Shown piece after piece: positions 2 through 20,857 of a DNA stretch of 23,964 nt. The notes under the pieces are model-generated. The model had not been told where the DNA came from and searched no databases. It saw nothing but the letters and a program-made list of their open reading frames with translations. The stretch comes from Nitrospinales bacterium (GTDB lineage Bacteria; Nitrospinota; Nitrospinia; Nitrospinales; JAJDAT01). The position numbers and the translations under genes were made by a program. Each line of letters starts with the position of its first letter. Position 1 is the first letter of the stretch. The DNA is taken from positions 1 to 23,964 of the forward strand of contig JBHHYO010000040.1 of the NCBI GenBank assembly GCA_046757665.1. The letters run 5' to 3'.

Positions 2-112
2 CTGCCGCCGATTATCCTTGCGGTTTCAACGCTTATTCTTGGGTTGTGTATACCTTCTTTCTTGAAGGATATTCTTAACCTTTTTGCGAGCACCCTGGGA
101 GGCGGTTTATGA
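2..112 (+). CDS. 3' end of hydrophobic membrane subunit, probably HyfF/NuoL-like antiporter subunit of the hydrogenase-4-like (Ehr) complex; partial
   Basis: Frame from nt 2 reads LPPIILAVSTLILGLCIPSFLKDILNLFASTLGGGL*; its TGA (110-112) overlaps the ATG of the next gene (ATGA). Identity inferred from hydrophobicity and the usual hyfF-hyfG order. Confidence 0.6.
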   Translation: MPPIILAVSTLILGLCIPSFLKDILNLFASTLGGGL

Positions 113-1614
113 GCGCGAGCCCGATACTGCTGAAAAACGGTCAGGTGACGCCGCTTGCGGATATTCCCGTGGTCGAATTCGACGACATGCGCTCATACCT
201 TATCGACACGGTAAAAAATGGCGCCAAGGTGTCGAAATTTTTTGGCCACCAGAAGAGTTCCGGCCCCGTCAGGATTTATGCCGTTCTGGGGTTGCACGAC
301 AGCCATCAGATAGCGGTTATGGCGGCGGATGTCGGCGATTCTTATGCCTCCCTCACTCCGGAGTGCCCGCAATTTCACTTGTTCGAGCGGGAGGTTTATG
401 AGCAATACGGCGTCAAGCCGGAAGGCCATCCCTGGCTCAAACCGGTCCGGTTTCATAAACCCTATAATGATGCGAAAATCGACACGCCGCAGATAGGTGT
501 TACGGAATTTTTCCGGGTTGAAGGAGAAGAAATCCATGAGGTAAATGTTGGCCCGGTACATGCCGGCGTTATTGAGCCGGGTTGTTTCCGGTTTCAGTGC
601 CACGGCGAAGGAGTTTTTCATCTTGAGATCTCCCTAGGGTACCAGCATCGGGGTATCGAGAGAGCGGTGATGGGGGGTCCGCACAGAATCACTTTGTGGC
701 AAATGGAAACCATAGCGGGCGATATGACCGTCGGCCATACGACAGCCTACTGCGAGGCGCTGGAGGCGCTTTCCGGAACTTTCGTGTCGGAACGGGCGAA
801 TGTTATCCGCGCCATCGGCCTGGAAATCGAAAGATTGACTTGTCACAATACCGATCTGGGCGCTCTTGCCCTGGACGTGGGGTATCTTCCCGTTGCCATG
901 TTCTGCGGCAGGCTTCGCGCCGAGCTGTTGAATTCCTCTGCCGAGATTTGCGGCAGTCGGTTCAGCCGCAGTATGGTTGTTCCCGGCGGTGTCGGGTGGG
1001 ATATCGATCCTCCTTGTCTGGACAGGCTGAGCAAAAAGCTGAAAAATGCCTTTCGGGAAATTTCCGGCGCGGTGGGTTTGATTTGGGACAAGCCGTCGAT
1101 GCTGACTTGGTTTGAAGGAACGGGCAGGGTGTCGACAGAAGATGCCGTGGGCGTTGGATTGGTCGGGCCGACCGGCCGGGCCGCCGGTATTCCGCGTGAT
1201 GTCCGAATCGATTACCCAACGGGTGCGTATGTCACCCATCCGATTCCCATTTCCGTGGCCGACAGAAAACCGGGCGACGTTTATTGGCGAGCCATGATCC
1301 GATGGATGGAAATGCAACGCTCCTACGATTTTATTATGAAAATGCTGGGTTCACTGCCTTCGGGAGAACTCTGCAATGAGGTGAAAACGCTGGCTCCCAA
1401 CAGCTTCGTTTGCACGCTGGTGGAGGGATGGCGCGGAGAAACGGTTCATGCCGTTATCACCGACGAGGCGGGGAAATTTGAGCGTTATAAAATAAAGGAC
1501 CCTTCATTTCACAATTGGCAGGGTCTCAGTCTTGCGCTACGCGGCGAGGAGATTTCTCACTTTCCGATCAACAACAAAAGTCACAATCTATCCTATTGCG
1601 GGTATGACTTGTAA
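109..1614 (+). CDS. HycE/HyfG-like large subunit (NuoC-NuoD fusion) lacking NiFe ligands; Ehr large subunit
   Basis: NuoC-like FEREVYEQYGVKPEGHP; NuoD-like VGPVHAGVIEPGCFRF, LGYQHRGIE, EGWRGE, KIKDPSFHNW. L1 position reads ETIAGD rather than RxCGxC and the C-terminus reads KSHNLSYCGYDL rather than DPCxxC. Confidence 0.9.
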   Translation: MSASPILLKNGQVTPLADIPVVEFDDMRSYLIDTVKNGAKVSKFFGHQKSSGPVRIYAVLGLHDSHQIAVMAADVGDSYASLTPECPQFHLFEREVYEQYGVKPEGHPWLKPVRFHKPYNDAKIDTPQIGVTEFFRVEGEEIHEVNVGPVHAGVIEPGCFRFQCHGEGVFHLEISLGYQHRGIERAVMGGPHRITLWQMETIAGDMTVGHTTAYCEALEALSGTFVSERANVIRAIGLEIERLTCHNTDLGALALDVGYLPVAMFCGRLRAELLNSSAEICGSRFSRSMVVPGGVGWDIDPPCLDRLSKKLKNAFREISGAVGLIWDKPSMLTWFEGTGRVSTEDAVGVGLVGPTGRAAGIPRDVRIDYPTGAYVTHPIPISVADRKPGDVYWRAMIRWMEMQRSYDFIMKMLGSLPSGELCNEVKTLAPNSFVCTLVEGWRGETVHAVITDEAGKFERYKIKDPSFHNWQGLSLALRGEEISHFPINNKSHNLSYCGYDL

Positions 1615-1623
1615 GGGATTTTC

Positions 1624-2406
1624 ATGTTAAAAGAACTCTTTGAAAGATTTCGGCAGGGGCACCATACGACGGTTTATCCCGATAAATATCCGGGCGTCTA
1701 CGAGCGCTACCGGGGTACGCCGAAAATCGACAGTTCAAAATGTGTGGACGATTGCAAGGCCTGTATTGACGCTTGCCCGACAGAAGTGATTTCCAAAGAC
1801 AACGGTCGGGTGAAAATAGACCTTGGCAACTGCCTGTTCTGCGTAGAGTGTGAAAGAGCTTGCCCTGAGGGCGCCATCCGCTACACCAAGGACCTGTATT
1901 GTTGCGCCAGCAAGAAGGAGGACCTGGTTATCAGTGATGAAGGTCTGAAACTTGCTTCCGGTATGGAAGAAAAGCTGGTAAAGCTCTACCAGGGGTCCTT
2001 CGGCATTCGCCAGGTCAGCGCCGCGGGTTGCATGGGTTGCGAAGCCGAGGTGAACGCGACGCAAAATATCGTGTTCGACACCACGCGGTTTGGCATTCAT
2101 GTGGTTGCCTCGCCCCGCCACGCGGACGCAATACTGGTGACCGGCCCGGTTTCGGAGAACATGCGGTTGGCGCTCAAAAAGACCTACGATTCCGTTCCGA
2201 AACCGACCATCGTAATTTCCGCCGGCGCTTGCGCCATAGCGGGCGGGCCGTTCCGCGGCAACTCGGAACAGCATAACGGCGCGGATGGCACGGTTCCCGT
2301 GGACCTTTACATTCCTGGATGCCCGCCCCATCCGATCACCATTGTCGATGGGCTTCTGAGGTTGTTGGGGTACAAAGTTGCGGCGGGCGAAGCCACGAGG
2401 GTTTGA
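1624..2406 (+). CDS. Fused 2x[4Fe-4S] ferredoxin (HycF/NuoI-like) and NuoB/HycG-like small subunit
   Basis: CVDDCKACIDACP and CLFCVECERACP ferredoxin motifs, then CMGCEAE, SPRHADAILVTGPV, GACA and YIPGCPP of the NuoB/HycG family. Confidence 0.9.
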   Translation: MLKELFERFRQGHHTTVYPDKYPGVYERYRGTPKIDSSKCVDDCKACIDACPTEVISKDNGRVKIDLGNCLFCVECERACPEGAIRYTKDLYCCASKKEDLVISDEGLKLASGMEEKLVKLYQGSFGIRQVSAAGCMGCEAEVNATQNIVFDTTRFGIHVVASPRHADAILVTGPVSENMRLALKKTYDSVPKPTIVISAGACAIAGGPFRGNSEQHNGADGTVPVDLYIPGCPPHPITIVDGLLRLLGYKVAAGEATRV

Positions 2407-2442: not shown

Positions 2443-2472
2443 CCGCCGCAGTGTTTGCGGCGGTTATTTTTT
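2443..2472 (+). terminator. Rho-independent terminator of the hyf/ehr-like operon
   Basis: 8-bp stem CCGCCGCA/TGCGGCGG with GTGTT loop followed by TTATTTTTT; T-tract overlaps the convergent mltA stop codon. Confidence 0.7.
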
Positions 2473-3828
2473 GATCAGAAAAAACATTTCCCCCGTTTCC
2501 ATGTAGTGTCCCGCCGCCGCGCCGGCTCGGTCGCCGACGCCGAAATACAAGTCCACCCGCCTTGGCCCCTTGATGGCGCTTCCCGTGTCCTGGTTAACCA
2601 CGAAGCGCGAGAATTTTTTCCACCCCGTGATTTCATCGTTGTCATTGAGCGCCGGTTTTTTGGCCATGATAAAGGCCAGGGCGCCCGGAGGATAAAAAAC
2701 CGGGTCGGTAGCGATAGACCGTCCGGCAACCACTTCGGCGCCGCTGGAACCGCGCGGTTTGCCGTCGGTTAATTCGAAAAAAATGTAGCGTTTGTTCTGG
2801 AAAAGATACTTCTCGATGTCCCAGGGATGATCCTCGAAATATTTCTTGATTCCCTGCATGGAACCTTGTGAGGGTTCAAGGACTCCGTCGCGAAGCATCA
2901 GTTTTCCGATAGTCTGGTAGGAATAGCCGTTGGATCCCGCATAGCGGACTCCCTCCCGGGTGCCGTCCAGATATTCGAGGATGCCGGAACCCTGAATGTG
3001 GAGGAAATATCTTTCCAGGTCATTTTTCAGCCAGGCGATTTCCAAGTTTTCATTTTGCAAAATCCGGTGGCCGTCAATGTCTTCGCGGGTGAAGTTGGGG
3101 TCGTCTTTTTCCAGATATGCGACGGTGTGCGTTTCGTTCGGCAACCACTGTTGATGCATGTATTGGTCCCTGGTCAAGCTTTTCGGCATTTGATAGAGCG
3201 GGTAATTGTACTCCTCCCACTTGAAACGGCTGGCGGAAATGATGGGGGTGTAATATCCCGTAAAAACGATTGGGCGGTTTTTGTCCTTGTTCGCGGCGTA
3301 AAAGATAAATGACTGTTTCAGCTTTTGGGTGAATTCTCCCGGGGGCAATTTTTGGTTCAGCAGGTCCAAAAACTCTTCGAGGGTGATTTTTAATCGGCCC
3401 AGAGTCATGGTGAGGGAGCCCAGGGTTACGGTTTGACGCAGATCCTGGCCGCGCAAAATCGCCAAATAATTTTCGACCGCTTGCGCCAGAGAATTTGTGT
3501 CCAAGTCGTCCGTTAAAATTTCCGGCAGTTCCTTGGCATCGTCAGAGGAGTCCAGGGAGGGGAAATTCTGGATTGTTTCGGCGGGCCGGGAATTCGGCTC
3601 AGGTTGTTGACGCGCGGATACGGCAGGCGGCGGAGTGAGTAAAACGGGGGCATTGGGCAAAGGGTCCGAGTAAGCGACTTCTGCCTTCTGTGCAGGAAAA
3701 TGGGATGGAAACAGGACGCAGGAATTTAACGTAAAACATTCCAGGAGTATCAGGTTGGCGAAGACAAACTTTGAAAAGCGTGAAGCTCGAGGGCGTTTGG
3801 GAAAAATAGAGAACAACATGCTCCGCAT
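2464..3828 (-). CDS. mltA: Membrane-bound lytic murein transglycosylase A (MltA/3D domain), probable lipoprotein
   Basis: FTGYYTP, YFLHIQGSG, YAGSNGYSY, RSIATDP, QDTGSAIKGPRRVDLYFGVG motifs; lipobox-like LNSC. Start taken as ATG 3828 (alternative 3819) because the longer ORF runs into rnhA. Confidence 0.9.
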   Translation of the reverse strand: MRSMLFSIFPKRPRASRFSKFVFANLILLECFTLNSCVLFPSHFPAQKAEVAYSDPLPNAPVLLTPPPAVSARQQPEPNSRPAETIQNFPSLDSSDDAKELPEILTDDLDTNSLAQAVENYLAILRGQDLRQTVTLGSLTMTLGRLKITLEEFLDLLNQKLPPGEFTQKLKQSFIFYAANKDKNRPIVFTGYYTPIISASRFKWEEYNYPLYQMPKSLTRDQYMHQQWLPNETHTVAYLEKDDPNFTREDIDGHRILQNENLEIAWLKNDLERYFLHIQGSGILEYLDGTREGVRYAGSNGYSYQTIGKLMLRDGVLEPSQGSMQGIKKYFEDHPWDIEKYLFQNKRYIFFELTDGKPRGSSGAEVVAGRSIATDPVFYPPGALAFIMAKKPALNDNDEITGWKKFSRFVVNQDTGSAIKGPRRVDLYFGVGDRAGAAAGHYMETGEMFFLIKK

Positions 3829-3842
3829 CGGCGGTTCCAAAT

Positions 3843-4274
3843 TCAGAGTGAACTCAGGGCTTGATTGGCCAACTCGTCGCAACGCTCGTTTTCCGGATGT
3901 CCGGAATGGCCTTTGATCCAGTGCCAGGAAATCTTGTGTTTTTGATTCAAGCGATGCAGTTCCTGCCAAAGGGACTTGTTTTTCACCGGCTGGCGGGAGG
4001 AGTTGACCCAGCCGTTTTTCAGCCAGCCGTGAATCCAACCGGTTATTCCTTTAATGACGTATTGGGAGTCCGTCGTCAGTTCCACTTCGCAAGGTTCTTT
4101 CAACTCGCTCAGAGCCTTGATGACGGCCGTCATTTCCATGATATTGTTCGTTGTTTTCTTTTCGGCTCCGGTGAGTTCCCTGACTTTACCATTATGCTTG
4201 AGAATACAGCCATATCCCCCAGGGCCGGGGTTTCCCTTGCAACATCCGTCTGTGAAAATCTGGATTTTTTTCAT
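3843..4274 (-). CDS. rnhA: Ribonuclease HI
   Basis: IFTDGCCKGNPGPGGYG, TTNNIMEM, TDSQYV, WIKGHSGHPENERCDELA; start set at MKKIQIFTDG (ATG 4274). Confidence 0.97.
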   Translation of the reverse strand: MKKIQIFTDGCCKGNPGPGGYGCILKHNGKVRELTGAEKKTTNNIMEMTAVIKALSELKEPCEVELTTDSQYVIKGITGWIHGWLKNGWVNSSRQPVKNKSLWQELHRLNQKHKISWHWIKGHSGHPENERCDELANQALSSL

Positions 4275-10216: not shown

Positions 10217-11890
10217 TTAATGGATCGTCAGCTTTTTGTATTTGGAGCGGCGGTTCTCTTCCTTGCCCCCCAGCTCCCGCTTGCGAACTTCCCGGTAGTC
10301 TTCAAAATTACCTTCGAACCAGCGGACTTTTCTATCGCCCTCAAACACCAGCAGGTGGGTGCAAATCCGGTTCAGAAAAAACCGGTCATGGCTGATCACC
10401 AGAACACAACCGTTGAACTCCAGAAGGGCATTCTCGAGGGAACGCAGGGTGGCGACATCCAGATCGTTCGTGGGCTCATCCAGCAACAGGACGTTGCCGC
10501 CGCGCCGTAAAAGTTTTGCCAGGTGAACCCGATTCCTTTCGCCACCGGAGAGGTTGGCCAATTTCTTTTGTTGATCCGTTCCCTTGAAGTTAAAGCTGGC
10601 GGCATAGGAACGGGCGTTGACGGTGGCTCCGGCGATTTCCAGGAAATCACCTCCGCCACCGATTTCCTCGAACACCGTTTTTTCGTCATCCAAATGGTCG
10701 CGGTGCTGGTCCACATAAGACAGCCTCACCGTTTTTCCCAGGGTGACGGTTCCCTGGTCCGATTTGTCGTCGCCGACGATTAGCCGGAACAGCGTGGTCT
10801 TCCCCGTTCCATTGGGTCCGATCAGCCCGACGATGGCGCCGCGCGGGATATCAAGTTCCAGGTTTTCAAACAAGAGATTTTCTCCGTAGCCTTTGGTCAA
10901 GCCCCGGATTTCCATGACGGACTCGCCAAGAGCCGGGCCGGGAGCGATCTGGATTTCCCTGGGATTTTCCTGCATCACGATTTTTTGCGAAGCGAGTTTT
11001 TCATATTCCCGGACGCGGGACTTGTTCTTTTTGTTGCGGGCGCTGGGGTTGGAGCGAATCCACTCCAGTTCCCGGTCGAGCGTTTTGCTCAGTTTGGAAG
11101 CGGTTTTCTCGTGTTGTCGAAGCTGGTTGGCTTTTTGCTCCAGCCAGGCGGAGTAATTTCCTTCAAACGGGATTCCCCTGCCGCCGTCCAGTTCCAAGAT
11201 CCACTGGGTAATGTTATCCAGGAAATAACGGTCATGGGTGGAGATGATCACGTTGCCTGGGAAGTCCCGTAGCGTTTCTTCCAGCCATTGCACCGTTTCC
11301 GCATCCAGATGGTTGGTGGGTTCGTCCAGCAACATGAGGTCCGGTTTTTCGAGCAACAACCGGCACAAGGCGACGCGCCGGGCCTCGCCGCCGGAAAGGG
11401 TGGATACTTCCTGGTCGTCCGGCGGCAAGACCAGCGCATCCATGGCCACGCTCACCTGCCGGCCCAGTTCCCATCCGTCCGCGGCGTCGATTTCATCCTG
11501 GAGCCGGGCCATTTTATCCAGCGCCTTTTGCATTTCTTCATCGGACATCGGGTTGGCCATGCTGGCGCTGACTTCGTTGAATTCATCAATCGATTTCCGG
11601 ATACCGGCAAAAGCTTCCTCAACAACTTCGCGGACGGTTTTTCCCGGTTCCAGGCGGGGCTCCTGGGGGAGGTAGCCGATGCGCGTTCCCTTGAGAGGTT
11701 TGGCCTGGCCTTCAAAATTGTCGTCCTCCTGGGCCATGATGCGGAGTAGCGTCGATTTTCCCGATCCGTTTTTGCCGACGATGCCGATTTTGGCGCCATG
11801 GTAAAACGACAGGTGAATGTCCTTTAATATGACTTTGTGTCCGTAGGACTTGCCCAAGCCGCTCATGGTAAAGATGTATTCTCCGGCCAT
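10217..11890 (-). CDS. ettA: Energy-dependent translational throttle ABC-F ATPase EttA
   Basis: Two ABC domains (GKNGSGKST, LSGGE, LLDEPTNHLD; GPNGTGKTT, LSGGERNR, LLDEPTNDLD), MAGEYIFTM start with AGGGAG RBS, PFEGNYSAWLEQK and RELEWIR. Confidence 0.95.
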   Translation of the reverse strand: MAGEYIFTMSGLGKSYGHKVILKDIHLSFYHGAKIGIVGKNGSGKSTLLRIMAQEDDNFEGQAKPLKGTRIGYLPQEPRLEPGKTVREVVEEAFAGIRKSIDEFNEVSASMANPMSDEEMQKALDKMARLQDEIDAADGWELGRQVSVAMDALVLPPDDQEVSTLSGGEARRVALCRLLLEKPDLMLLDEPTNHLDAETVQWLEETLRDFPGNVIISTHDRYFLDNITQWILELDGGRGIPFEGNYSAWLEQKANQLRQHEKTASKLSKTLDRELEWIRSNPSARNKKNKSRVREYEKLASQKIVMQENPREIQIAPGPALGESVMEIRGLTKGYGENLLFENLELDIPRGAIVGLIGPNGTGKTTLFRLIVGDDKSDQGTVTLGKTVRLSYVDQHRDHLDDEKTVFEEIGGGGDFLEIAGATVNARSYAASFNFKGTDQQKKLANLSGGERNRVHLAKLLRRGGNVLLLDEPTNDLDVATLRSLENALLEFNGCVLVISHDRFFLNRICTHLLVFEGDRKVRWFEGNFEDYREVRKRELGGKEENRRSKYKKLTIH

Positions 11891-12013
11891 GGTTCTCCCT
11901 ATAGATGAAAGGTTAGTAAGTGTTGCGGAGGATTTTCCGGGAAGCGGTGCCAAGCGGCAACAGGGCGTGTTTGCAACCGCCTCGCCGGTTTGTCGAAGTA
12001 TCTCGATCAGGAA

Positions 12014-13483
12014 TTATACAACTTCCCGGTCAAAAAATTCTCGCCGGGGCAGACCGTCCATGTAGTTTCGAATATCGTTTTTATAGGAGACGAACGGGTC
12101 CACCATCAGGAAGGGCTCTTCGTTGTCGAGGCGGAAACCGAACCAATCGATAATATAAGCGGGTTTTCCATACTTCGACTGTCGTTCGATAAGGGTTTTG
12201 ACGAGTTCGCCGCGGCCGTCGGCGCGGGTGCCTTTGGGTGGGACGCTTTTGGCGCGTTCGATAGCGGCATCGCTGGTCTTTCGGTAGGCGTCGCCGTTTT
12301 CCTCCAGTCCCCAGTACAGCCCCTGTTCCTTGTTCAGGTTGTGAAATTCCAGGTCCAGGCTTTTGAGCCACGGGTCGTGCCAGTCCAGGTTTTCTTCGTT
12401 ACGGAATTCGTTCAGCATCCAATACTTTCCGGCCCAGTCCACGCGGCCGAGAACCGCCTCCGGCCCCTTGGCGAGGTCTTGTAAAACCGACTCCCAGGCC
12501 CGGATAATCCAATCCGTTTCCAGGCTTGTTCCCGAGAGATGTTTTTTGGCGGCCTCCATGATTTCCATTTGCAGTTCCAAGGCGGTGGTGTGGCGTCCGT
12601 TTCCCAGGATGATGGGCCACTTGAACTCTTGATCGCGGGAAATTTCCCGCATGGTTGAAACGGAGTCGATGAGAATCCAACTGGGATCGCAGGCGCCCAT
12701 TTCGATAAGGTCCATCATGAGCGAGGTGGTTCCCATTTTCATGGCGACGGCAAACTCGCTCATATTGGAATCGCCGACCAGCAGGTGGACCCGGCGGAAC
12801 TTGTGGGGGTCGGCCAGGGGTTCGTCGCGGGTGTTGACGATGGCGCGGTTGTATTGCACCCATCGGTAAGCCTCGTTGGGAACGTGGTCGGCGCGCTGGG
12901 AAATTTGGAAATCGATTTTTTCGTATTCCGGGCCGGTTCGCGTCAATCCGTCCCAATCCTTGAACGGATGCGGGTTGCAGGCGCCGATCCGCCCCGCGCC
13001 GCACAGAATCTGGCGGGTGACCAAAAAGGAAGCCAGCAGTTTGATGCTTTTCTGGTTGTCGAACGGGTAGGAGCGGTTTCTCAGGTAATTTTCATGGCAT
13101 CCAAACGTGGCGTTGGATTCAAGGTCGACGTTGTTCTTGATGATCGCCACCTGGTTGGCCCATCCCAGCTCCTCCAGCGCTTCCTGGATGATCAGGTCTC
13201 CGGCGCGGTCGAAGGTGATGAGGTCAACCAGGTTGGAACATTCCGGACTGGCGTATTCCAAGTGGCCCATGTCCAGATAAATTCGTCCGCCGTTGGCCAG
13301 AAAACCGCCGTTGTCGGGCGGTTCGTCATTGGCCCGGTAATGTTGGTCCAGCAGGCCGATTTTTTGCGTGTTGAAAATATATTCCTTGATGCAAATGGCG
13401 ACCTCGACGGGTCCCAGCTTGAAATCGTCGTTCTTGATGAGCATCCCGTACTCGGTTTCAATGCCAAAAATGCGTTTTCTCAT
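12014..13483 (-). CDS. pafA: PafA-like modifier-protein ligase (glutamine synthetase/carboxylate-amine ligase fold)
   Basis: RIFGIETEYG, FLANGGRIYLDMGHLEYASPEC, GCHENY, NTRDEPLAD, RRVHLLVGDSNMSE; ATG 13483 overlaps prcA stop (ATGA). Confidence 0.9.
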   Translation of the reverse strand: MRKRIFGIETEYGMLIKNDDFKLGPVEVAICIKEYIFNTQKIGLLDQHYRANDEPPDNGGFLANGGRIYLDMGHLEYASPECSNLVDLITFDRAGDLIIQEALEELGWANQVAIIKNNVDLESNATFGCHENYLRNRSYPFDNQKSIKLLASFLVTRQILCGAGRIGACNPHPFKDWDGLTRTGPEYEKIDFQISQRADHVPNEAYRWVQYNRAIVNTRDEPLADPHKFRRVHLLVGDSNMSEFAVAMKMGTTSLMMDLIEMGACDPSWILIDSVSTMREISRDQEFKWPIILGNGRHTTALELQMEIMEAAKKHLSGTSLETDWIIRAWESVLQDLAKGPEAVLGRVDWAGKYWMLNEFRNEENLDWHDPWLKSLDLEFHNLNKEQGLYWGLEENGDAYRKTSDAAIERAKSVPPKGTRADGRGELVKTLIERQSKYGKPAYIIDWFGFRLDNEEPFLMVDPFVSYKNDIRNYMDGLPRREFFDREVV

Positions 13484-14223
13484 GATGACAAACAAGCCGC
13501 CTTCAATTGTTCTATTTCCTGGCCGGACAGGGGCCGGTAGATGGATTTCCGTGGAGCCGTGTGGCAAAGCACGGCGCCCTCAAGAATCCACTTGTCGAAA
13601 GCTTCCTTGAGGGCGGTGGGGGAGTCGTCGTCCTCGTCATTAATTTGCTGTCTTCCTTTCTCCCAAAGCTTGCAGGCCTCCAGCAGAGCGCGGTCGAGCG
13701 AAAAATCGGCGAAGGGTTTTTCGGTAATTTGTTGATCGAGCCAGTCGGCCATTTTTTTGTTGCCACAAACCACGGCGCCTTTTTTAAAGGTTTCCCAGTA
13801 GCCGTCGTAATTCAGGTGGAAAAAATGAGGTGCGCCATCCAGGTCGATTTCGACCAGCACCAACTGAACCAGGTACGGTGCGCGCTGAACCTCCTCGAAA
13901 TTTTGTTTCAAGGCGGGAGCAAGACCGAACTGGAGCAGGCGGGTCAGCGTCACATCCCGCGCTGACCGGTTGAATCCTTCCACGTGGGCCATGTCGAGCA
14001 GGATCATGCGCAGTTTTTCTACGTCGGCGGGATGCCCCATGCCGCCGATGGCGATGCGGTCATAAATTTCGTAAATTTTCCCCGGCTGGGGACAAAACCC
14101 CAGCAACAAGGCCCCGTCCTTGAACGGGACGGCCAGCACGGGCTGTCCCTTCTTGAGTTTCCCCTGGACGTAACCGTGTCGCGTCGCAATGGCCTCGGTC
14201 CAGCGAAACGGCTCGTCAAACAT
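13480..14223 (-). CDS. prcA: 20S proteasome alpha subunit (divergent, UBact-operon type)
   Basis: KIYEIYDRIAIGGMG, RSARDVT, PYLVQLVLVEI...YDG resemble actinobacterial PrcA; lies between prcB and pafA. Confidence 0.88.
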   Translation of the reverse strand: MFDEPFRWTEAIATRHGYVQGKLKKGQPVLAVPFKDGALLLGFCPQPGKIYEIYDRIAIGGMGHPADVEKLRMILLDMAHVEGFNRSARDVTLTRLLQFGLAPALKQNFEEVQRAPYLVQLVLVEIDLDGAPHFFHLNYDGYWETFKKGAVVCGNKKMADWLDQQITEKPFADFSLDRALLEACKLWEKGRQQINDEDDDSPTALKEAFDKWILEGAVLCHTAPRKSIYRPLSGQEIEQLKAACLSS

Positions 14224-15025
14224 GTTTATTCCCCTGCATGGATTTTTTGAACAAATCGGCCATCTCGTCTTCCGGGATGAAATGGTAGCCGTCCCGGGTG
14301 ATGCTGGCGATGATGGGGAAGATATTTTCCTCGGGCCGGGCCTGGCCGGTTGCGCTGTCGAACAGGGCCGCGGTATGCAACAGGCGGATGGCGAGCATTG
14401 CGGCTTCCCGCCGGTTGCGCCGCTCCAACGGTTTTGCTCCCCAGAGGTTTTCGTGTTCGAGGATGCCGCGGATCATGGGCGACCCGGAGCCGGTGGCGGT
14501 GTGAGTTAAGATTTGAAACTGCGCGCCCATCATGTCGTAAAAATAAATTGCGGGCTTGTTTTTCTGAACGTCGAACAGGGCGAGAATGGGACTCACCGCG
14601 CCGATGCCCTGCATGGCCATTCCCACGTTTTCCTTAAGCAGTCTGGACAGGGCGCGGATTTTGCCTTCCGCGCTCAGGGACTGGAGTTGGGAGCGGCGGT
14701 AGTATTCGAAGTTGTGCGACATGATGCGGGCCATTTCAAAAGCGGTTGCCGGCACTCCGGCAATGGCCATCAGGGAATAATCGTCAATCGGGATCACCTT
14801 GTCGCAACGTTCGTACATGATGTTGGTGCCGGCCGAGGCCCGCCGGTCGCCGGCTACGATGACGCCGTCCTTGAAATGAAACGCCAGAACGGTAGTGCCC
14901 TGGGTTACGCTGGAGGTCTCCGGGCCCGGCAAATGCTTCGACACCGCCTGCCACCGGTAACCGGAACGTTGCAGAAGGTCGAAAAAATCGCCGGTAGTTG
15001 AGTTTTCCAATGCGCTTGTTTTCAT
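14216..15025 (-). CDS. prcB: 20S proteasome beta subunit with 43-aa propeptide
   Basis: QG|TTVLAFHFKDGVIVAGDRRAS; catalytic Thr1, Asp17 and Lys33 are present at exactly canonical spacing; ATGSGS motif. Confidence 0.95.
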   Translation of the reverse strand: MKTSALENSTTGDFFDLLQRSGYRWQAVSKHLPGPETSSVTQGTTVLAFHFKDGVIVAGDRRASAGTNIMYERCDKVIPIDDYSLMAIAGVPATAFEMARIMSHNFEYYRRSQLQSLSAEGKIRALSRLLKENVGMAMQGIGAVSPILALFDVQKNKPAIYFYDMMGAQFQILTHTATGSGSPMIRGILEHENLWGAKPLERRNRREAAMLAIRLLHTAALFDSATGQARPEENIFPIIASITRDGYHFIPEDEMADLFKKSMQGNKHV

Positions 15026-15198
15026 TGGCCCGTTCGTTGTCGATATTTTTCCGACTGTTTTGGGTCGACTTTTTTCATGCGCTTCAAAATACTGTCACGT
15101 CCGGGCCGGGAAACGTCTGGCCGGGACGGGCCGATTTCCTTGTGGTCGGGTGCGGGGTCCTTTTTTTCCTCGCGTCTTAAGGGATCATTTAAGTCCAT
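15022..15198 (-). CDS. ubact: Ubiquitin-like small modifier UBact (58 aa)
   Basis: MDLNDPLRREEKKDPAP...LKRMKKVDPKQSEKYRQRTGQ; C-terminal R[T/S]G[E/Q] and LxRM..VDP pattern of UBact; AAAAGGAG RBS; occupies the pup position between dop and prcB; stop overlaps prcB ATG. Confidence 0.9.
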   Translation of the reverse strand: MDLNDPLRREEKKDPAPDHKEIGPSRPDVSRPGRDSILKRMKKVDPKQSEKYRQRTGQ

Positions 15199-15317
15199 GC
15201 GAACGACTCCTTTTGGTAAGTGACTTTTTTTAAATCGGTGGCGGAGGTTTTCCAACCCGCGTATAAGCAAACGGGAAAGCTCGCCGCTTAAGTCAAGCCA
15301 CTATTTTATTAAAGTTT

Positions 15318-16808
15318 TTAACCCGGTTGCAAAATGTTTTTAGATATGTCCTTAAGCATGTTTTCAACTTCGCCGGGTTCAATGACGCCGCTCAAGTCGA
15401 GGGCGCTTTCGTTTTTGAATTCAATGCCGGTCCAATGAATGGATTTTATTTCCTCGGCGCGAGATGCGACGGCCTGCCCGCGGATCATGGCCCGGGTGCC
15501 CTCGGGCGGATGATGAACGGCATCTTCCACTTCCCTGTCGGTGCACAGCCGGGTTACGCTACCTTCCTCTTCCAGGCCGCGGTACAACCCGCGTTCGGCG
15601 TCGAGATTATGATATTCCAAATCGAGGCTTTGCATCCAGGGGTCGCGCCAATCAAGGTTCTCGGATTCCAGGAAGCGGTTGAACAGTTTGTCCTTGATCG
15701 CCCAGTCGATCCGGTCGGCCAGGTTTTCGGATTGATGACGCAGATCGTGCAAGGTGCGGCCCCACTCCCGGATCACCCAGTCCCAGTCCTGGCGTCGGCC
15801 TTCATAGTGCCGCGTGGCTTCCGAGAGATACCAGTCCTGGATTTCCAGGGGGGAAATGGTCCGGCCCGTTTCCCGCTTGAGCAAAACGGAACCTGTTTTG
15901 TCCCGCGATACCTGTTTGATATCGGCGACGGGGTCGGCCAGCACGGGAGGGGCGGAAATTTTTTCCTCGCCGATCAAGGTCAGGACCATCTGCGTGGTTC
16001 CCACTTTCAACGCCGTGGCGTACGGCGACATGTTGGCGTCGCCGAGAATCAGGTGAAGCCTGCGGTACTCTTCGCCCGGAGCATGTGGCTCGTCGCGGGT
16101 ATTGACGATGGGTCTCCGGGTCATGGTTTCGATGCTCAGCAGGGTCTCGATGAAATCGGATCGCTGGGAGAGTTGCAGTCCCGTGAACGGTTCCGTTTGT
16201 TTTGTTTCGGAGCCGACTTTCCCCGCCCCGGCGTAAAGTTGCCGGGTGACCAAAAACGGCGTCAGCCGCTCCACCCAATATTCAAACGGCAGTTTGCGGG
16301 GGATCAGGTAATTATCGTGCGTGCCGTAGCTATGGCCGCTGTAATCGGTATTATTTTTGTATAACTGGACGGCGTTTTCTCCGATCTCCCGGTTTCTCAG
16401 GCGGGCGCATTCGGCGAGAATCCTTTCTCCGGCGCGGTCCTGGGCAACCAGTTGGAAAATGTTCCGGCACTCGGCGGTGCTGTATTCGGGGTGGGTATGG
16501 TCGTTGTAAAACCGGGCTCCATTGGTCAGCACCCGGTCGCTTTTCATTTCCCAATAGGAATAGGGCCGCTTGCGGTCCTGTTTGCAAAACTCGTCCTCTT
16601 CCTGGTCCTGGGCGAGCTGGGCGACGGAAAACCCGCGCTGGTCGAGGTGGCTACGCTCCCGGGAATAGGCCCAGATGCCGAATACGCTTTTTATCGGACA
16701 GCATTTCAGCAGGGCCATGGATTCATCGACCGGGTCCGAGACTTCGACATTTTCCCGGATGATGCCGTATTCCGTTTCGATCCCCATCAAGGGCACAATG
16801 TTGCTCAT
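15318..16808 (-). CDS. dop: Dop-like deamidase/deconjugase
   Basis: LMGIETEYG, Dop-loop-like WAYSRERSHLDQRGF, VLTNGARFYNDHTHPEYSTAEC, YKNNTDYSGHSYGTHDNY, YRRLHLILGDANMS. Confidence 0.92.
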   Translation of the reverse strand: MSNIVPLMGIETEYGIIRENVEVSDPVDESMALLKCCPIKSVFGIWAYSRERSHLDQRGFSVAQLAQDQEEDEFCKQDRKRPYSYWEMKSDRVLTNGARFYNDHTHPEYSTAECRNIFQLVAQDRAGERILAECARLRNREIGENAVQLYKNNTDYSGHSYGTHDNYLIPRKLPFEYWVERLTPFLVTRQLYAGAGKVGSETKQTEPFTGLQLSQRSDFIETLLSIETMTRRPIVNTRDEPHAPGEEYRRLHLILGDANMSPYATALKVGTTQMVLTLIGEEKISAPPVLADPVADIKQVSRDKTGSVLLKRETGRTISPLEIQDWYLSEATRHYEGRRQDWDWVIREWGRTLHDLRHQSENLADRIDWAIKDKLFNRFLESENLDWRDPWMQSLDLEYHNLDAERGLYRGLEEEGSVTRLCTDREVEDAVHHPPEGTRAMIRGQAVASRAEEIKSIHWTGIEFKNESALDLSGVIEPGEVENMLKDISKNILQPG

Positions 16809-18409
16809 ATCATGGACCGCTTGAAGGTCATCGCCGCGTCACTGTCGGAATCCCGCGGACGCCTGACCCGAACCACATCCTGGGGGTCGATGTCCAGCAG
16901 TTGCAACCAATCCTCCAGATTGGGCTGGGCGGGCAACAAACTGCCTTCGGTGAATTCGGTTTCCAGGGATCGGGACAGGTCGTCGGCCTTGAGCACCAGT
17001 TCCCCGCCGGCGATGGCTCGTTCGATGGCCAATTCCTTCGCCCGTTGCACTACGCCCTCGATGATGGCGCCGGAAATGAAATTTTTCCAATAGAGGGATT
17101 TGGTTTCTCCCGTCTTCAAGGTCAGGATCAGGACTTCCTGCTTGGGCGATTTGGTGAAGAGTTTGTCCAGAAAGGGCGCGGTCATTTTCTGTATGTCCGC
17201 ATGTTCCAGTTTGCCGTCGAGATAAATTTTCAGGATGTCGCTACATCCTTCGCGGTTAGGCCTGCCGATCTTGATTTTACGGTCGATCCTGCCCGGCCGC
17301 AGTATGGCGGGGTCGATCAGGTCGGGCCGGTTGGTGGCCAGGATGACGACCGTTTCCTTGAGGGATTGAATGCCGTCCATTTCCGCGCAGAACATGGGCA
17401 CCAGGGTGTTGGTGATATTGTTGGTCCGCCAGGCTTGGCGGGTGCCCAGGATGGATTCCGCCTCGTCGATAAAAATAAAGGGGAGTTGTTCTTTTTCCCG
17501 GTATTCCCGGGCTTTTTTGAAAATTTCGCGTATTTTTCTTTCCGATTCACCCAGCCACATGTTCAGGATTTCCGGTCCCTTGACGTGGATAAACCGGCCT
17601 TCGACATTTCTTTTTTTATCGCCGCTCAGTTTTTTGACGATATCGGTCAGGATTGCCCTGCCGACCAGGGTTTTCCCACATCCGGGCGGGCCATAAAACA
17701 GGAACCCTTTCGGCAGTTGGTAATTCATTTCCTGGAGGATGTCGGAATGCAGTACCGGGTATTCGATGACCTTGCGGACTTGTTCGATGACTTTTTCCTG
17801 ACCGCCGACGCGGTTCCAGTCGACGGGGACAAAATCGTCTTCGACAAAGGTTTTGCTTTCTCTCTTCGGCAGTTTGCCGAGGATGATTTTTTGACTGGGA
17901 TCGAGCACCACCTCATCGCCTTCCTTGAAGGTCGATGGGTCCAGGTCCTGGCTTAGCATGGCCATGGACTCGGTGTTGGCGGTTGTGCCCGTGACCAGCC
18001 ATTGGCCGTCGGCCAGGCGCGTGATGATCCTGGCCATCGGGCCCTGTTGTGGCGGCGGCAGTTTGTAGATGGCGGTGAATCCCTCGTTCAGGGCGACCTG
18101 GTCACCGACATTGAGGGGCTCCTGGATTTCCGGCGAGACCGCCACCTGGTATTCCTGGCCGCCGCAGGACAAGCGGTACAGGCTGTCTTTGCCGGGACCC
18201 AGGATGGTGCCGATACGGTGAGCCGGGGATTTTAACTTGCCGATCGTTTCCTCGAGGGTTTTTATCTTCAGGGAAAATTGCCGGGCCTCCTGTTGCGCCT
18301 GCAACAGGGCATCCCGCAGGTCGTAAATTTTCTCCTGCAACTTGGGTCGATCGGCGGTCTCGTCAAGTATCTGGTCAATCAACTCTATAATGTGAGTGGG
18401 GTCGCCCAT
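16805..18409 (-). CDS. arc: Proteasome-associated AAA+ ATPase (ARC/Mpa-like)
   Basis: N-terminal coiled coil ending KLKSP, two OB-like repeats (GDQVALNE, GDEVVLD), Walker A GPPGCGKT, pore loop NMWLGESE, Walker B FIFIDEAE, SRH ATNRPDLIDPAILRPGRID. Confidence 0.93.
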   Translation of the reverse strand: MGDPTHIIELIDQILDETADRPKLQEKIYDLRDALLQAQQEARQFSLKIKTLEETIGKLKSPAHRIGTILGPGKDSLYRLSCGGQEYQVAVSPEIQEPLNVGDQVALNEGFTAIYKLPPPQQGPMARIITRLADGQWLVTGTTANTESMAMLSQDLDPSTFKEGDEVVLDPSQKIILGKLPKRESKTFVEDDFVPVDWNRVGGQEKVIEQVRKVIEYPVLHSDILQEMNYQLPKGFLFYGPPGCGKTLVGRAILTDIVKKLSGDKKRNVEGRFIHVKGPEILNMWLGESERKIREIFKKAREYREKEQLPFIFIDEAESILGTRQAWRTNNITNTLVPMFCAEMDGIQSLKETVVILATNRPDLIDPAILRPGRIDRKIKIGRPNREGCSDILKIYLDGKLEHADIQKMTAPFLDKLFTKSPKQEVLILTLKTGETKSLYWKNFISGAIIEGVVQRAKELAIERAIAGGELVLKADDLSRSLETEFTEGSLLPAQPNLEDWLQLLDIDPQDVVRVRRPRDSDSDAAMTFKRSMI

Positions 18410-18443: not shown

Positions 18444-18473
18444 ATTGTAAGGCGAAAAAAAAAATTCCGTCAA
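18444..18473 (-). promoter_or_regulatory. Sigma70-type promoter of the arc-dop-ubact-prcBA-pafA operon
   Basis: Minus strand TTGACG (18473-18468), 18-bp spacer, TACAAT (18449-18444), 34 nt upstream of the arc ATG. Confidence 0.65.
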
Positions 18474-18558: not shown

Positions 18559-19842
18559 ATGCTCTTAGTTCAAAATAAACCGTATATCGACAAGTGCATA
18601 GTCAGTTTCAGCCATAACCGGTATTCGACTCGCCGGGCGGCGGACAAAGCCAGCCTGAAAAAAGCCCGGCGGGAAATCGCCGCCGGTAAAAGAGGTATCA
18701 GTCATCTTATCCTGCGTGCCGACGATGACCGGATCGACCGGTTGAAATTTCTCTTCCTCATTCACGGCATCCCCATCGTTTGTTACACGATGGCCAACCT
18801 TCTCCATTCCAGCTTGAAGGAAATCGTGGTGGTCGGCTCGCCGGAGGTCAAGCGCGTACTGGACGCTTTTCTGGAGATCGCCGGCGACAATGGGAAAACC
18901 GCGCATTTTGTTCTCGAAGACCCTGAGTATCTGAGCCTCATGAACACGATGAACCTGGGGCGCAACAAATTGTCGCTGGATACCACGGAGCTGGTTTTGT
19001 TCCAGCCGGGCGACTTGCCTTTCATGTACGACCTGGAGAAAGTTCTGCGGGACGAGGCAATTGCGACCCACAACCTGATTTTGTGGCTGAATGCGCGCGC
19101 GAAAATGTTTCCACGTTTCGAGGAGGACCCGGAAAGCGAATTCGTGAAGAGGAATTACCATTACCGGACGATCGACGAAAAAGCCGACGAGGTGCTCGAT
19201 GTCAAGGAGCCGAATATTTACCCGATCAACTTGTCGGCTATGGAGCCGGATATTATCGAACTGCTACACCAAACCCGCAAGGACGGGCAGATTTTCAGGG
19301 CGGCGATCACCAAGGCCCTGAGGCATCCGTCGCGTTTCCTGCGTCTGCTCCCCGTGTTCACCCATCAACTGTTGCATTTCCGGGCCGACATGGAGCGGTT
19401 CCGGAAGCATGACGATTTTCAGTTTGGAATGCACAAGAAAAATTTTGATTACGGGGTTTCCGTGCTTTTAAACACGGCGTTTACCACCAGGATACACAAC
19501 GACCCGGCCTTCGTCGCCGACGTGGACGCCCTGGAGGATTGGGAGGATTATGAAGCGCTGACCGATTATGCCCGGCGGCAAGGCGGCGAGGATGGCCTGG
19601 TTGCCATTCACCCTTACGGCGGGAAACTTCTTGAGTTCAAGAAAAAAGCCATGCCGGGCCTGAAAAAAAACATGCCGATGTATGCCGATTTTTGCGGCTA
19701 CATGAACGACATTTACCGGACCCTGCAAATGCCATATGTTCCTTTTGACGGCAACGGGAACTACATCAATCCCCGCCCTCACAATAAAGAGGTCGGAAAT
19801 GCCTTCCGATGGTACAATCAAAAAACCCAAGGCCAATGCTGA
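18559..19842 (+). CDS. Hypothetical protein with divergent MobA/NTP-transferase-like (GT-A) fold
   Basis: KFLFLIHGIPIVCYTMANL...KEIVVVGS, LVLFQPGDLPF and ADVDALEDW match the K-x-L...G-x-P, DxP and D-V-D-x-x-E-D patterns of that fold; canonical N-terminal LAAG/LAGG motif is absent. Confidence 0.55.
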   Translation: MLLVQNKPYIDKCIVSFSHNRYSTRRAADKASLKKARREIAAGKRGISHLILRADDDRIDRLKFLFLIHGIPIVCYTMANLLHSSLKEIVVVGSPEVKRVLDAFLEIAGDNGKTAHFVLEDPEYLSLMNTMNLGRNKLSLDTTELVLFQPGDLPFMYDLEKVLRDEAIATHNLILWLNARAKMFPRFEEDPESEFVKRNYHYRTIDEKADEVLDVKEPNIYPINLSAMEPDIIELLHQTRKDGQIFRAAITKALRHPSRFLRLLPVFTHQLLHFRADMERFRKHDDFQFGMHKKNFDYGVSVLLNTAFTTRIHNDPAFVADVDALEDWEDYEALTDYARRQGGEDGLVAIHPYGGKLLEFKKKAMPGLKKNMPMYADFCGYMNDIYRTLQMPYVPFDGNGNYINPRPHNKEVGNAFRWYNQKTQGQC

Positions 19843-19897: not shown

Positions 19898-20857
19898 ATG
19901 ACAACTTATTATTTTCCCAAGAGACTGCATCCGCATTTGGAAAAAGCGATTTTGCTGTCTTTGCTACTCCATATTCTGGCGTTTATCCTGCATGGTTTGA
20001 CGCCGCGGACCATGCCTGTGACGCCGCGGCTCGAACCGATCAAGGTAAAGTTCATTGAAACTCCCAAGGAGAAGGTTCCGGATCGCGGCACGCTGATCGA
20101 TGCTCCCAAACCGCGGCGGATCGAGAAACCGCGCACCGCCAAGTTGCTGGCGAAATTCGACAGCCGGGCTCATTCCAACGTGAAAAAGAACAAGGCTTCC
20201 GATTACCGGCACCGCAAGCTTGTGGCGCCCAAGTTACGGGGCCGGCACCCGGCCATAAAAAAGAGGAAGGTGGTTCCTCCCAGGAAGAAACGGGTTGTCA
20301 AGCCGCGGCCGGGGACCATACAAAAAACGCCGCTCCGGCCGCCGTCCAACAAGGGTTTGCAACTCGGCATCAACCCGCGGGTAAAAAAACCGGCGCCCGC
20401 CGAGGAACAGCAAACGCCGCGTTCACTGTTCGCCCTGCTGGACGGGTTCGATGCAAGCCCCTATGCCGAAACCGACACCGGCGCCCAGGAAGACTTTGAT
20501 GATGGCGAAACGATTTCCCTGGATACCAAGGAAACTCTGTACGCCGATTACTTCGCCCGCATCAAACATCAAATCGAAAGGGTCTGGGGGTATCCGGAGT
20601 CTGCGGCGCGGCGCGGCATCAGCGGGCAATTGACGTTGCGGTTTCAGATTTCCAAGGAGGGTAATTTGCTGAGGGTGCATGTCACCCAGGCCTCTGGAGC
20701 GGAAATCCTGGACCGCGCCGCCGTCAAGGCCGTGAAAATGGCGGCGCCGTATTATCCTTTCCCCGCGACCATCAAAAAAGAAAAACTGGCCATTCTGGCT
20801 ACCTTCATTTACAGCCCTTCTTACGGCAGGTCCTATCAGTACCAGACGTACCGTTGA
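19898..20857 (+). CDS. TonB-family energy transducer
   Basis: N-terminal TM with SxxxH (LLSLLLHILA), Pro/Lys-rich linker, TonB C-terminal domain YPESAARRGISGQLTLRFQISKEG...LDRAAVKAV...PFP. Confidence 0.88.
   Translation: MTTYYFPKRLHPHLEKAILLSLLLHILAFILHGLTPRTMPVTPRLEPIKVKFIETPKEKVPDRGTLIDAPKPRRIEKPRTAKLLAKFDSRAHSNVKKNKASDYRHRKLVAPKLRGRHPAIKKRKVVPPRKKRVVKPRPGTIQKTPLRPPSNKGLQLGINPRVKKPAPAEEQQTPRSLFALLDGFDASPYAETDTGAQEDFDDGETISLDTKETLYADYFARIKHQIERVWGYPESAARRGISGQLTLRFQISKEGNLLRVHVTQASGAEILDRAAVKAVKMAAPYYPFPATIKKEKLAILATFIYSPSYGRSYQYQTYR

Follow-up and report, generated by a model that had tools for sequence, protein, structure and literature searches.

An intact UBact-proteasome operon in a Nitrospinota genome

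The window analyzed here comprises 23,964 nucleotides and is the entire contig JBHHYO010000040.1 of a Nitrospinales bacterium (phylum Nitrospinota; assembly GCA_046757665.1, a metagenome-assembled genome of 2.97 Mb in 160 contigs, with a completeness of 97.6%). On its minus strand, between positions 12014 and 18409, we locate a head-to-tail array of six genes, which encode the small protein modifier UBact, two ligase-fold enzymes, an unfoldase and the two subunits of a 20S proteasome. The open reading frame (ORF) list gives their order as arc, dop, ubact, prcB, prcA, pafA, all on one strand, just as a first-pass annotation of this DNA had read them. The first gene, arc (16805-18409, minus strand), specifies a 534-residue proteasomal AAA ATPase of the Mpa/ARC type with an N-terminal coiled coil, two OB domains, an AAA module and the C-terminal tail RSMI. 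It is followed by dop (15318-16808, minus strand), whose 496-residue product belongs to the deamidase/de-conjugase type, and by ubact (15022-15198, minus strand), which encodes a basic modifier of 58 residues. The two proteasome genes come next: prcB (14216-15025, minus strand) for a 20S beta subunit of 269 residues, and prcA (13480-14223, minus strand) for a divergent alpha subunit of 247 residues. The array closes with a pafA-like gene (12014-13483, minus strand; 489 residues when counted from its ATG) for the presumed UBact ligase. In hidden Markov model searches all six proteins are matched by Pfam families.

The tag itself is clearly recognized. The small ORF, which the first-pass annotation had named UBact, scores 74.6 bits with Pfam model PF20513 (cut-off 27.8, E-value 5.3e-21) and 73.5 bits with NCBIfam model NF033388 (cut-off 35), and thus passes both curated UBact models; it is the sole one of the six proteins to exceed its NCBIfam cut-off. 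UBact was reportedly named in 2017 by Lehmann, Udasin, Livneh and Ciechanover (in BBRC 483:946), who are said to have defined its C-terminus by the motif R-[T/S]-G-[E/Q]. The window tag ends in RTGQ, as annotated, and in an alignment of 29 sequences from two phyla Arg-55, Thr-56 and Gly-57 are invariant. This invariance holds for 20 of the 58 UBact positions, and the C-terminal half is almost invariant throughout. The last residue is glutamine in 37/37 rows from Nitrospinota and glutamate in 4/4 rows from Nitrospira-type loci, with dop retained in both groups; the two endings parallel those of Pup, the actinobacterial tag, which has a Q and an E variant as well. The position of ubact between dop and prcB is the one expected for arc-dop-tag-prcB-prcA-pafA loci, and the genome contains one UBact gene and two Pup_ligase genes, all of them within the operon.

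Both ligase-fold proteins are strongly matched by the Pfam Pup_ligase model (506 bits and an E-value of 1e-151 for Dop, 426.8 bits and 1e-127 for the PafA-like protein). They share the motif GIETEYG, and the GxExE element and the loop with the catalytic Asp are intact in each of them. The dop product aligns with the Dop structure 4b0r over its full length (314 bits, from residue 7), whereas PafA aligns with it only from residue 86, which indicates that the Dop-loop is present. The distance from GxExE to the catalytic Asp is 88 residues in Dop versus 58 in the PafA-like protein. In the Asp loop of Dop (YNDHTHPEY) His comes directly after the catalytic Asp, without an insertion, which is the Dop state in rows 10-11 of Table 1 in Hecht et al. 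2020 (PMC7947786). The score of Dop with TIGR03688 (410 bits) lies below the cut-off of 492.3, but TIGR03688 is still its best model.

ARC contains the Pfam domains AAA, Prot_ATP_ID_OB_N and Prot_ATP_ID_OB_C, and Mpa chains (7ljf/7px9) align to its residues 33-517. The NCBIfam model pup_AAA (TIGR03689) yields 370.4 bits, below its cut-off of 504.75. The translation reveals a Walker A motif (GPPGCGKT), a Walker B motif (FIFIDEAE) and a pore loop with the sequence W-L-G; for Mpa, the pore-loop motif is given as Ar-Hb-Gly in excerpts of PMC8755798. PrcB reaches 99.9 bits with Pfam family Proteasome (PF00227, cut-off 22.4) and 159.8 bits with the NCBIfam beta model (of the TIGR03690/TIGR03691 pair; cut-off 191.9). 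Its best PDB matches are beta chains from Rhodococcus and M. tuberculosis, the mature forms of which begin opposite residue 44, and we thus assign Thr-44 as Thr1, preceded by a 43-residue propeptide. This propeptide ends in Gly (G43/T44), and by counting, Asp17 and Lys33 correspond to Asp-60 and Lys-76. PrcA scores 32.6 bits with the same Pfam family and matches the 20S alpha subunits of Rhodococcus (1q5q, 3e-11) and M. tuberculosis. Translations and PDB alignments hence agree with the annotated catalytic motifs, namely Thr1/Asp17/Lys33 in PrcB, the two GIETEYG copies and Walker A and B in ARC.

The reading frames are tightly packed. From the coordinates, arc and dop overlap by 4 bp and prcB and prcA by 8 bp; inspection of the junction sequences reveals an ATGA overlap both at ubact/prcB and at prcA/pafA. 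All six frames are intact and their starts are coupled, and the three ATGA overlaps and one 8-bp overlap, noted already in the first-pass annotation, constitute tight translational coupling. Between dop and ubact lies a spacer of 119 nt (15199-15317, minus strand), compared with roughly 2-50 nt in relatives, which holds the ubact Shine-Dalgarno sequence AGGAG. The ubact frame remains open upstream to a TTG at 15270, but we favor the 58-codon ATG start, as it has its own AGGAG 8 nt before it. The pafA frame is open up to a TTG at 13567. We could not detect a fold signal in the 119-nt spacer when compared with shuffled sequences (z -0.77). A promoter-like site with 9/12 matches is located by the spacer, at 15332..15303 on the minus strand, and the window Dop extends about 11 residues further at its C-terminus than its relatives do.

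A sigma-70-like promoter (TTGACG-18-TACAAT, 10/12 matches) is found at 18444-18473 of the minus strand, 34 nt before the arc ATG. The region contains three sigma-70-like sites versus 3.2 expected from shuffles, and the match alone therefore proves nothing. A TTGnnn-17/18-TAnnnT element is, however, present 28-40 nt upstream of arc in 26/27 Nitrospinota loci, a count made over relatives that are not independent of each other, and in 0/5 Nitrospira-type loci at that position. The position of this promoter-like element is clearly kept among Nitrospinota. The putative sigma-70 promoter of the first-pass annotation is thus supported by its conserved position and not by the number of sites.

The operon is common in the host lineage. 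The closest relatives of Dop stem from Nitrospinota (Nitrospinaceae or Nitrospina; 63-71% identity), followed by Nitrospira-type proteins at about 52%. Among the best 120 relatives of the PafA-like protein all named ones are Nitrospinota, and these relatives are routinely annotated as PafA-family proteins or Pup ligases. Cultured relatives, for example Nitrospina watsonii, carry the same operon. UBact is present in 94/120 genomes of the phylum (49/57 when only high-quality genomes are counted) and in 93/101 genomes of the order to which the window belongs, distributed over four families, compared with 0/18 genomes in five other families. Among 34 relative loci, 23 contain all six genes, 21 of them in the order seen in the window; the other 11 end at contig edges and agree as far as they go. 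Two Nitrospinota loci (L035, 1842-3599, and L036, 7524-9283) have the rearranged order arc-dop-prcA-ubact-prcB-pafA. The PafA frame of one Nitrospira-type locus (L045, 9404-10921) contains an in-frame stop, for which a sequencing error, decay to a pseudogene or wrong coordinates on our side are possible reasons.

We propose that the window carries a complete, vertically inherited Nitrospinota UBact-proteasome operon, the Gram-negative counterpart of the Pup-proteasome system, and we assign a probability of about 0.8 to this reading, including the mechanism outlined below. The gene identities and the predicted fit between tag and ligase were computed here, whereas every biochemical step is modeled by homology on the Pup system, as far as it is described in excerpts of PMC3511204 and PMC8755798. 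The disordered, basic 58-residue UBact would be made with a C-terminal glutamine, and the Dop-type enzyme would convert this residue to glutamate by deamidation. The PafA-type enzyme would then activate the side-chain carboxylate of the glutamate with ATP and link the tag to lysine residues in target proteins. The N-terminal coiled coils of an ARC hexamer would catch the tag, the free N-terminus of which would be threaded through the pore and past the W-L-G loop. From ARC the substrate would enter the 20S core formed by PrcA and PrcB and would be cleaved there by Thr1 of the processed beta subunit, and Dop may also take the tag off substrates. The operon is real and almost certainly functional, but ordinary, because the system is already known and is near-universal in the order.

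Several points weigh against this reading. The best NCBIfam match names the right family for all six proteins, but the five enzyme and protease components remain below their equivalog cut-offs; we assume that these equivalog models were trained on Actinobacteria. Our literature search, judged partly on titles and the beginnings of abstracts, returned no bench study of UBact conjugation, substrates or physiological role. This fits the statement in the first-pass annotation that UBact conjugation lacks an experimental demonstration, in that only citations of the 2017 naming paper surfaced. The remaining points relate to the tail of ARC, to the PafA-like enzyme and to the way in which tag and enzyme were compared, and are considered below together with the explanations that they favor.

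UBact tagging could be real but not mainly a degradation signal, with ARC lacking stable docking to the 20S core, the tag used for regulation or unfolding, and the proteasome working largely alone or with another activator. Mpa docks onto the 20S particle through the motif GQYL at its C-terminus, in which the penultimate tyrosine is the main determinant, according to excerpts of PMC8755798. The RSMI tail of the window ARC has no such tyrosine, and neither has any of 33 relatives, which end in RSII (26), RSVI (2) or NQII (5); the penultimate residue is Met in the window where most relatives have Ile. PrcA, too, is very divergent, reaching 53.4 bits with the NCBIfam model 20S_bact_alpha, for which the cut-off is 139.05. 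On the other hand, the ARC tail is itself conserved, with two terminal aliphatic residues in two phyla, which argues that a docking function has been kept and is provided by a different residue. In addition, arc, ubact and the 20S genes reside in one translationally coupled operon in 23/23 loci that reach that far. We consider an uncoupling of tagging from the proteasome unlikely, and favor a UBact tag that would deliver substrates to the 20S core.

A different objection arises from the second ligase-fold protein, which we infer to be a ligase from its sequence. It could instead serve as a second hydrolase or have mixed activity, such that conjugation would occur otherwise or be absent, and UBact would work without covalent attachment, for instance as an adaptor or assembly factor. 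Its scores with TIGR03686 (329.5 bits, cut-off 551.3) and with the Dop model (317.1 bits) are nearly equal. We mapped the states of the 23 rows in Hecht Table 1 by hand from the structure alignment and then checked them, and found the protein in the PafA state in only 9 rows (Ala29, Phe37, no loop, Phe61, Leu70, Gly73, Ala78, His200 and Asp446), in the Dop state in 2 (Ala51 and Pro80), ambiguous in 2 and unlike both enzymes in 10, among them 8 alpha-loop positions. The alpha-loop resembles neither enzyme and has two conserved threonines replaced by V-Q, and the Asp loop (YLDMG-HLEY) lacks one residue compared with that of actinobacterial PafA (YLDVGSHPEY). Yet the protein has no Dop-loop and aligns end to end with the PafA structure 4b0t (247.4 bits, residues 2-472), while Dop covers residues 61-427 only (244.5 bits), and the PafA-type residues His200, Gly73, Leu70 and Asp446 are retained.

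The phylogeny of the two enzymes bears on the same question. Because the best 120 homologues were all of the Nitrospinota type, we sampled 150 representatives at 50% identity. Of these, 93 passed a length and motif filter and were combined with 14 rows from the window and its related loci into a FastTree of 107 rows, 57 of which were chosen for IQ-TREE under a site-heterogeneous model. Two rows serve as references: P0187 scores above the PafA cut-off, and P0167, located on the Dop side, above the Dop cut-off. Alignment A2 omits the PafA row of L045, the frame with the stop. The clades containing the window PafA-like protein and the window Dop each have a support of 100, and the trees match the division into two clades described by Hecht et al., as far as it is given in the excerpts of PMC7947786. 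All 23 Dop-type rows lie on one side of a branch that excludes the PafA-like protein (support 70). The free trees do not join the PafA-like clade to actinobacterial PafA, setting it beside the Dop side with a weak support of 64, but forcing the two together gives a tree whose log-likelihood is better by 7.28 units than that of the free tree and which is not rejected (approximately unbiased test, p 0.77), for groups that we defined once the first tree was known. We tried the PafA-like gene as a Dop-derived paralogue, a candidate supported neither by the 23-row branch on the Dop side nor by the comparison with the constrained tree.

We predicted the complex of the PafA-like protein with UBact from alignments of 22 and 29 rows, respectively. 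The complex scores 0.89 and the best control 0.00, on a scale where 58/80 solved complexes and 2/110 mismatched pairs reach the mark; as a PafA-Pup complex has already been solved (4BJR), the score may reflect likeness to this known complex and is no proof that the window copy binds. Prediction runs have at least 76% of the contacts in common, with a predicted local distance difference test (pLDDT) value of at least 57 for the partner. In the model, residues 31-58 of UBact contact the PafA-like protein in a groove (residues 342-398) and at two active-site elements (11-19, 71-74), and the tail is placed at the active site. That the C-terminal R-T-G-[QE] is invariant and its tail is predicted to lie in the active site would be difficult to account for if no reaction took place at the terminal residue, and we regard a system without a UBact ligase as improbable. 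The divergence of the components from actinobacterial models could also point to a decaying relic of horizontal transfer that is out of use, but six intact frames with coupled starts, retention in 93/101 genomes of the order, a nearly invariant C-terminal half of the tag and a conserved promoter position make such a relic highly improbable.

Comparison of the UBact and Pup systems revealed a reversal of charge in the tag and in the enzyme surface predicted to bind it. The last 28 residues of UBact carry a mean net charge of +5.9 (range +4 to +7 in 29 unique sequences; +7 in the window), whereas in Pup ORFs, which end in GGQ/GGE and were located downstream of dop in 74/80 actinobacterial loci, the corresponding value is -6.6 (range -8 to -4). 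In 22 groove columns defined from the model, the net charge is -2.7 for UBact-type PafA (its three Nitrospinota rows have -6) and -1.4 for UBact-type Dop, versus +2.2 in actinobacterial PafA and +3.2 in actinobacterial Dop; the groups compared are clades of our own trees, picked after the first tree had been seen, which lessens the weight of these counts. Neighboring columns of the same stretch that are not part of the interface show no charge split between the groups. Columns 363 and 372 contain Arg/Lys in actinobacteria and Glu/Trp here, and column 379 has Gln/Ala there and Glu here. On the basis of the model, tag and tag-binding surfaces seem to have evolved together, the strongly basic C-terminal half of UBact being paired with acidic grooves, the opposite of the arrangement in Pup. 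More tentatively, and at slightly less than even odds, the UBact machinery may represent a charge-inverted and mutually insulated version of the Pup system, with an ARC that docks onto the 20S core by its aliphatic tail instead of a penultimate tyrosine. UBact enzymes would therefore not cross-react with Pup, and, if this is true, UBact and Pup would form a natural orthogonal pair of tagging systems and a clean case of tag-enzyme co-evolution.

The neighboring genes include those for TonB (19898-20857) and MltA (2464-4038), both as annotated. They fit a diderm, Gram-negative cell envelope and, together with the Nitrospinota relatives, agree with the diderm, non-actinobacterial host suggested in the first-pass annotation. 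A gene for a 427-residue protein (18559-19842, plus strand) lies divergently upstream of arc. It has a sub-threshold MobA-like match (Pfam NTP_transf_3) and no NCBIfam match, and in the Atlas it belongs to hypothetical clusters specific to Nitrospinota. The gene occupies the same position in 27/27 Nitrospinota loci reaching that far and in 0/5 Nitrospira-type loci; its linkage to arc may be mere shared ancestry. Directly downstream of pafA we find a gene for an EttA-type ABC-F translational throttle protein (10217-11953, minus strand; 837 bits, cut-off 599). It is not adjacent to pafA in relatives, where weak ABC matches occur about 2 kb off in 3 loci only. The plus strand between 5501 and 9174 contains a cluster of genes for a CO_dh-like small subunit and for POR_N/PFOR_II, TPP_enzyme_C and POR gamma-type proteins, which resembles a 2-oxoacid:ferredoxin oxidoreductase with several subunits, such as operates in the reductive tricarboxylic acid cycle. 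Further upstream (109-2406, plus strand) are genes for a fused Complex1 30-kDa/49-kDa-like protein of 501 residues and, behind it, for a protein that combines a ferredoxin domain with an NADH-dehydrogenase 20-kDa-subunit domain; by their domains, these genes may belong to a module resembling a hydrogenase or complex I. Rfam families and tRNAs were not found in the window.

The operon is a correctly identified member of a catalogued system, and loci of its type are in print for Nitrospinae. Iyer, Burroughs and Aravind 2008 describe, for bacteria other than Actinobacteria, orthologues of Pup that end in G[EQ] (excerpts of PMC2588565), and the excerpted parts of Hecht et al. 2020 list Nitrospinae among the phyla with Dop/PafA homologues and tabulate the residues that separate the two enzymes. 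Compared with the known UBact loci of Gram-negative phyla, the window has the same six genes in the same order and a tag that passes both models and ends in R-T-G-Q. It is a member of this group, and its local peculiarities are the 119-nt dop-ubact spacer and the Met as penultimate residue of ARC. To our knowledge, no protein-tagging system linked to a proteasome other than UBact is catalogued for Gram-negative bacteria. Any intact UBact locus, including the one in the window, could hence serve as a template for reconstitution; the window copy does not represent a new kind of system, and the leads apply to the class as a whole, namely the reversed charge of tag and groove, the ARC tail without tyrosine and the unusual loop in the active site of the presumed ligase.

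Nitrospira-type UBact loci (L043-L047) share the gene order with the window, their proteins are 42-59% identical, and their ARC tail (NQII) again has two terminal aliphatic residues. They differ in having a tag with a longer N-terminal half that ends in Glu (4/4 rows), so that no deamidation would be needed, and they contain neither the 427-residue MobA-like neighbor (0/5) nor a promoter match at the position found in Nitrospinota.

The actinobacterial Pup-proteasome system, which the layout had been said to parallel, is indeed homologous by its Dop, PafA, Mpa and 20S structure matches. Enzymes, unfoldase and 20S core are related, Dop contains a Dop-loop and PafA does not, and in both systems a small disordered tag ends in Gln or Glu, the terminal Gln implying a deamidation step. 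Several differences set the two apart. Pup ends in GG[QE] and is acidic (-6.6 over its last 28 residues), whereas UBact ends in RTG[QE] and is basic (+5.9), and the grooves of the respective enzymes have opposite charges. Mpa has a GQYL tail that is missing from the window ARC, and the Asp loop and alpha-loop of actinobacterial PafA differ from those of the PafA-like protein. Unlike actinobacterial Pup components, Dop, the PafA-like protein, ARC and the 20S subunits of the window fall under the equivalog cut-offs. Finally, pafA is joined into the operon directly behind prcA in the window, unlike in the actinobacterial system.

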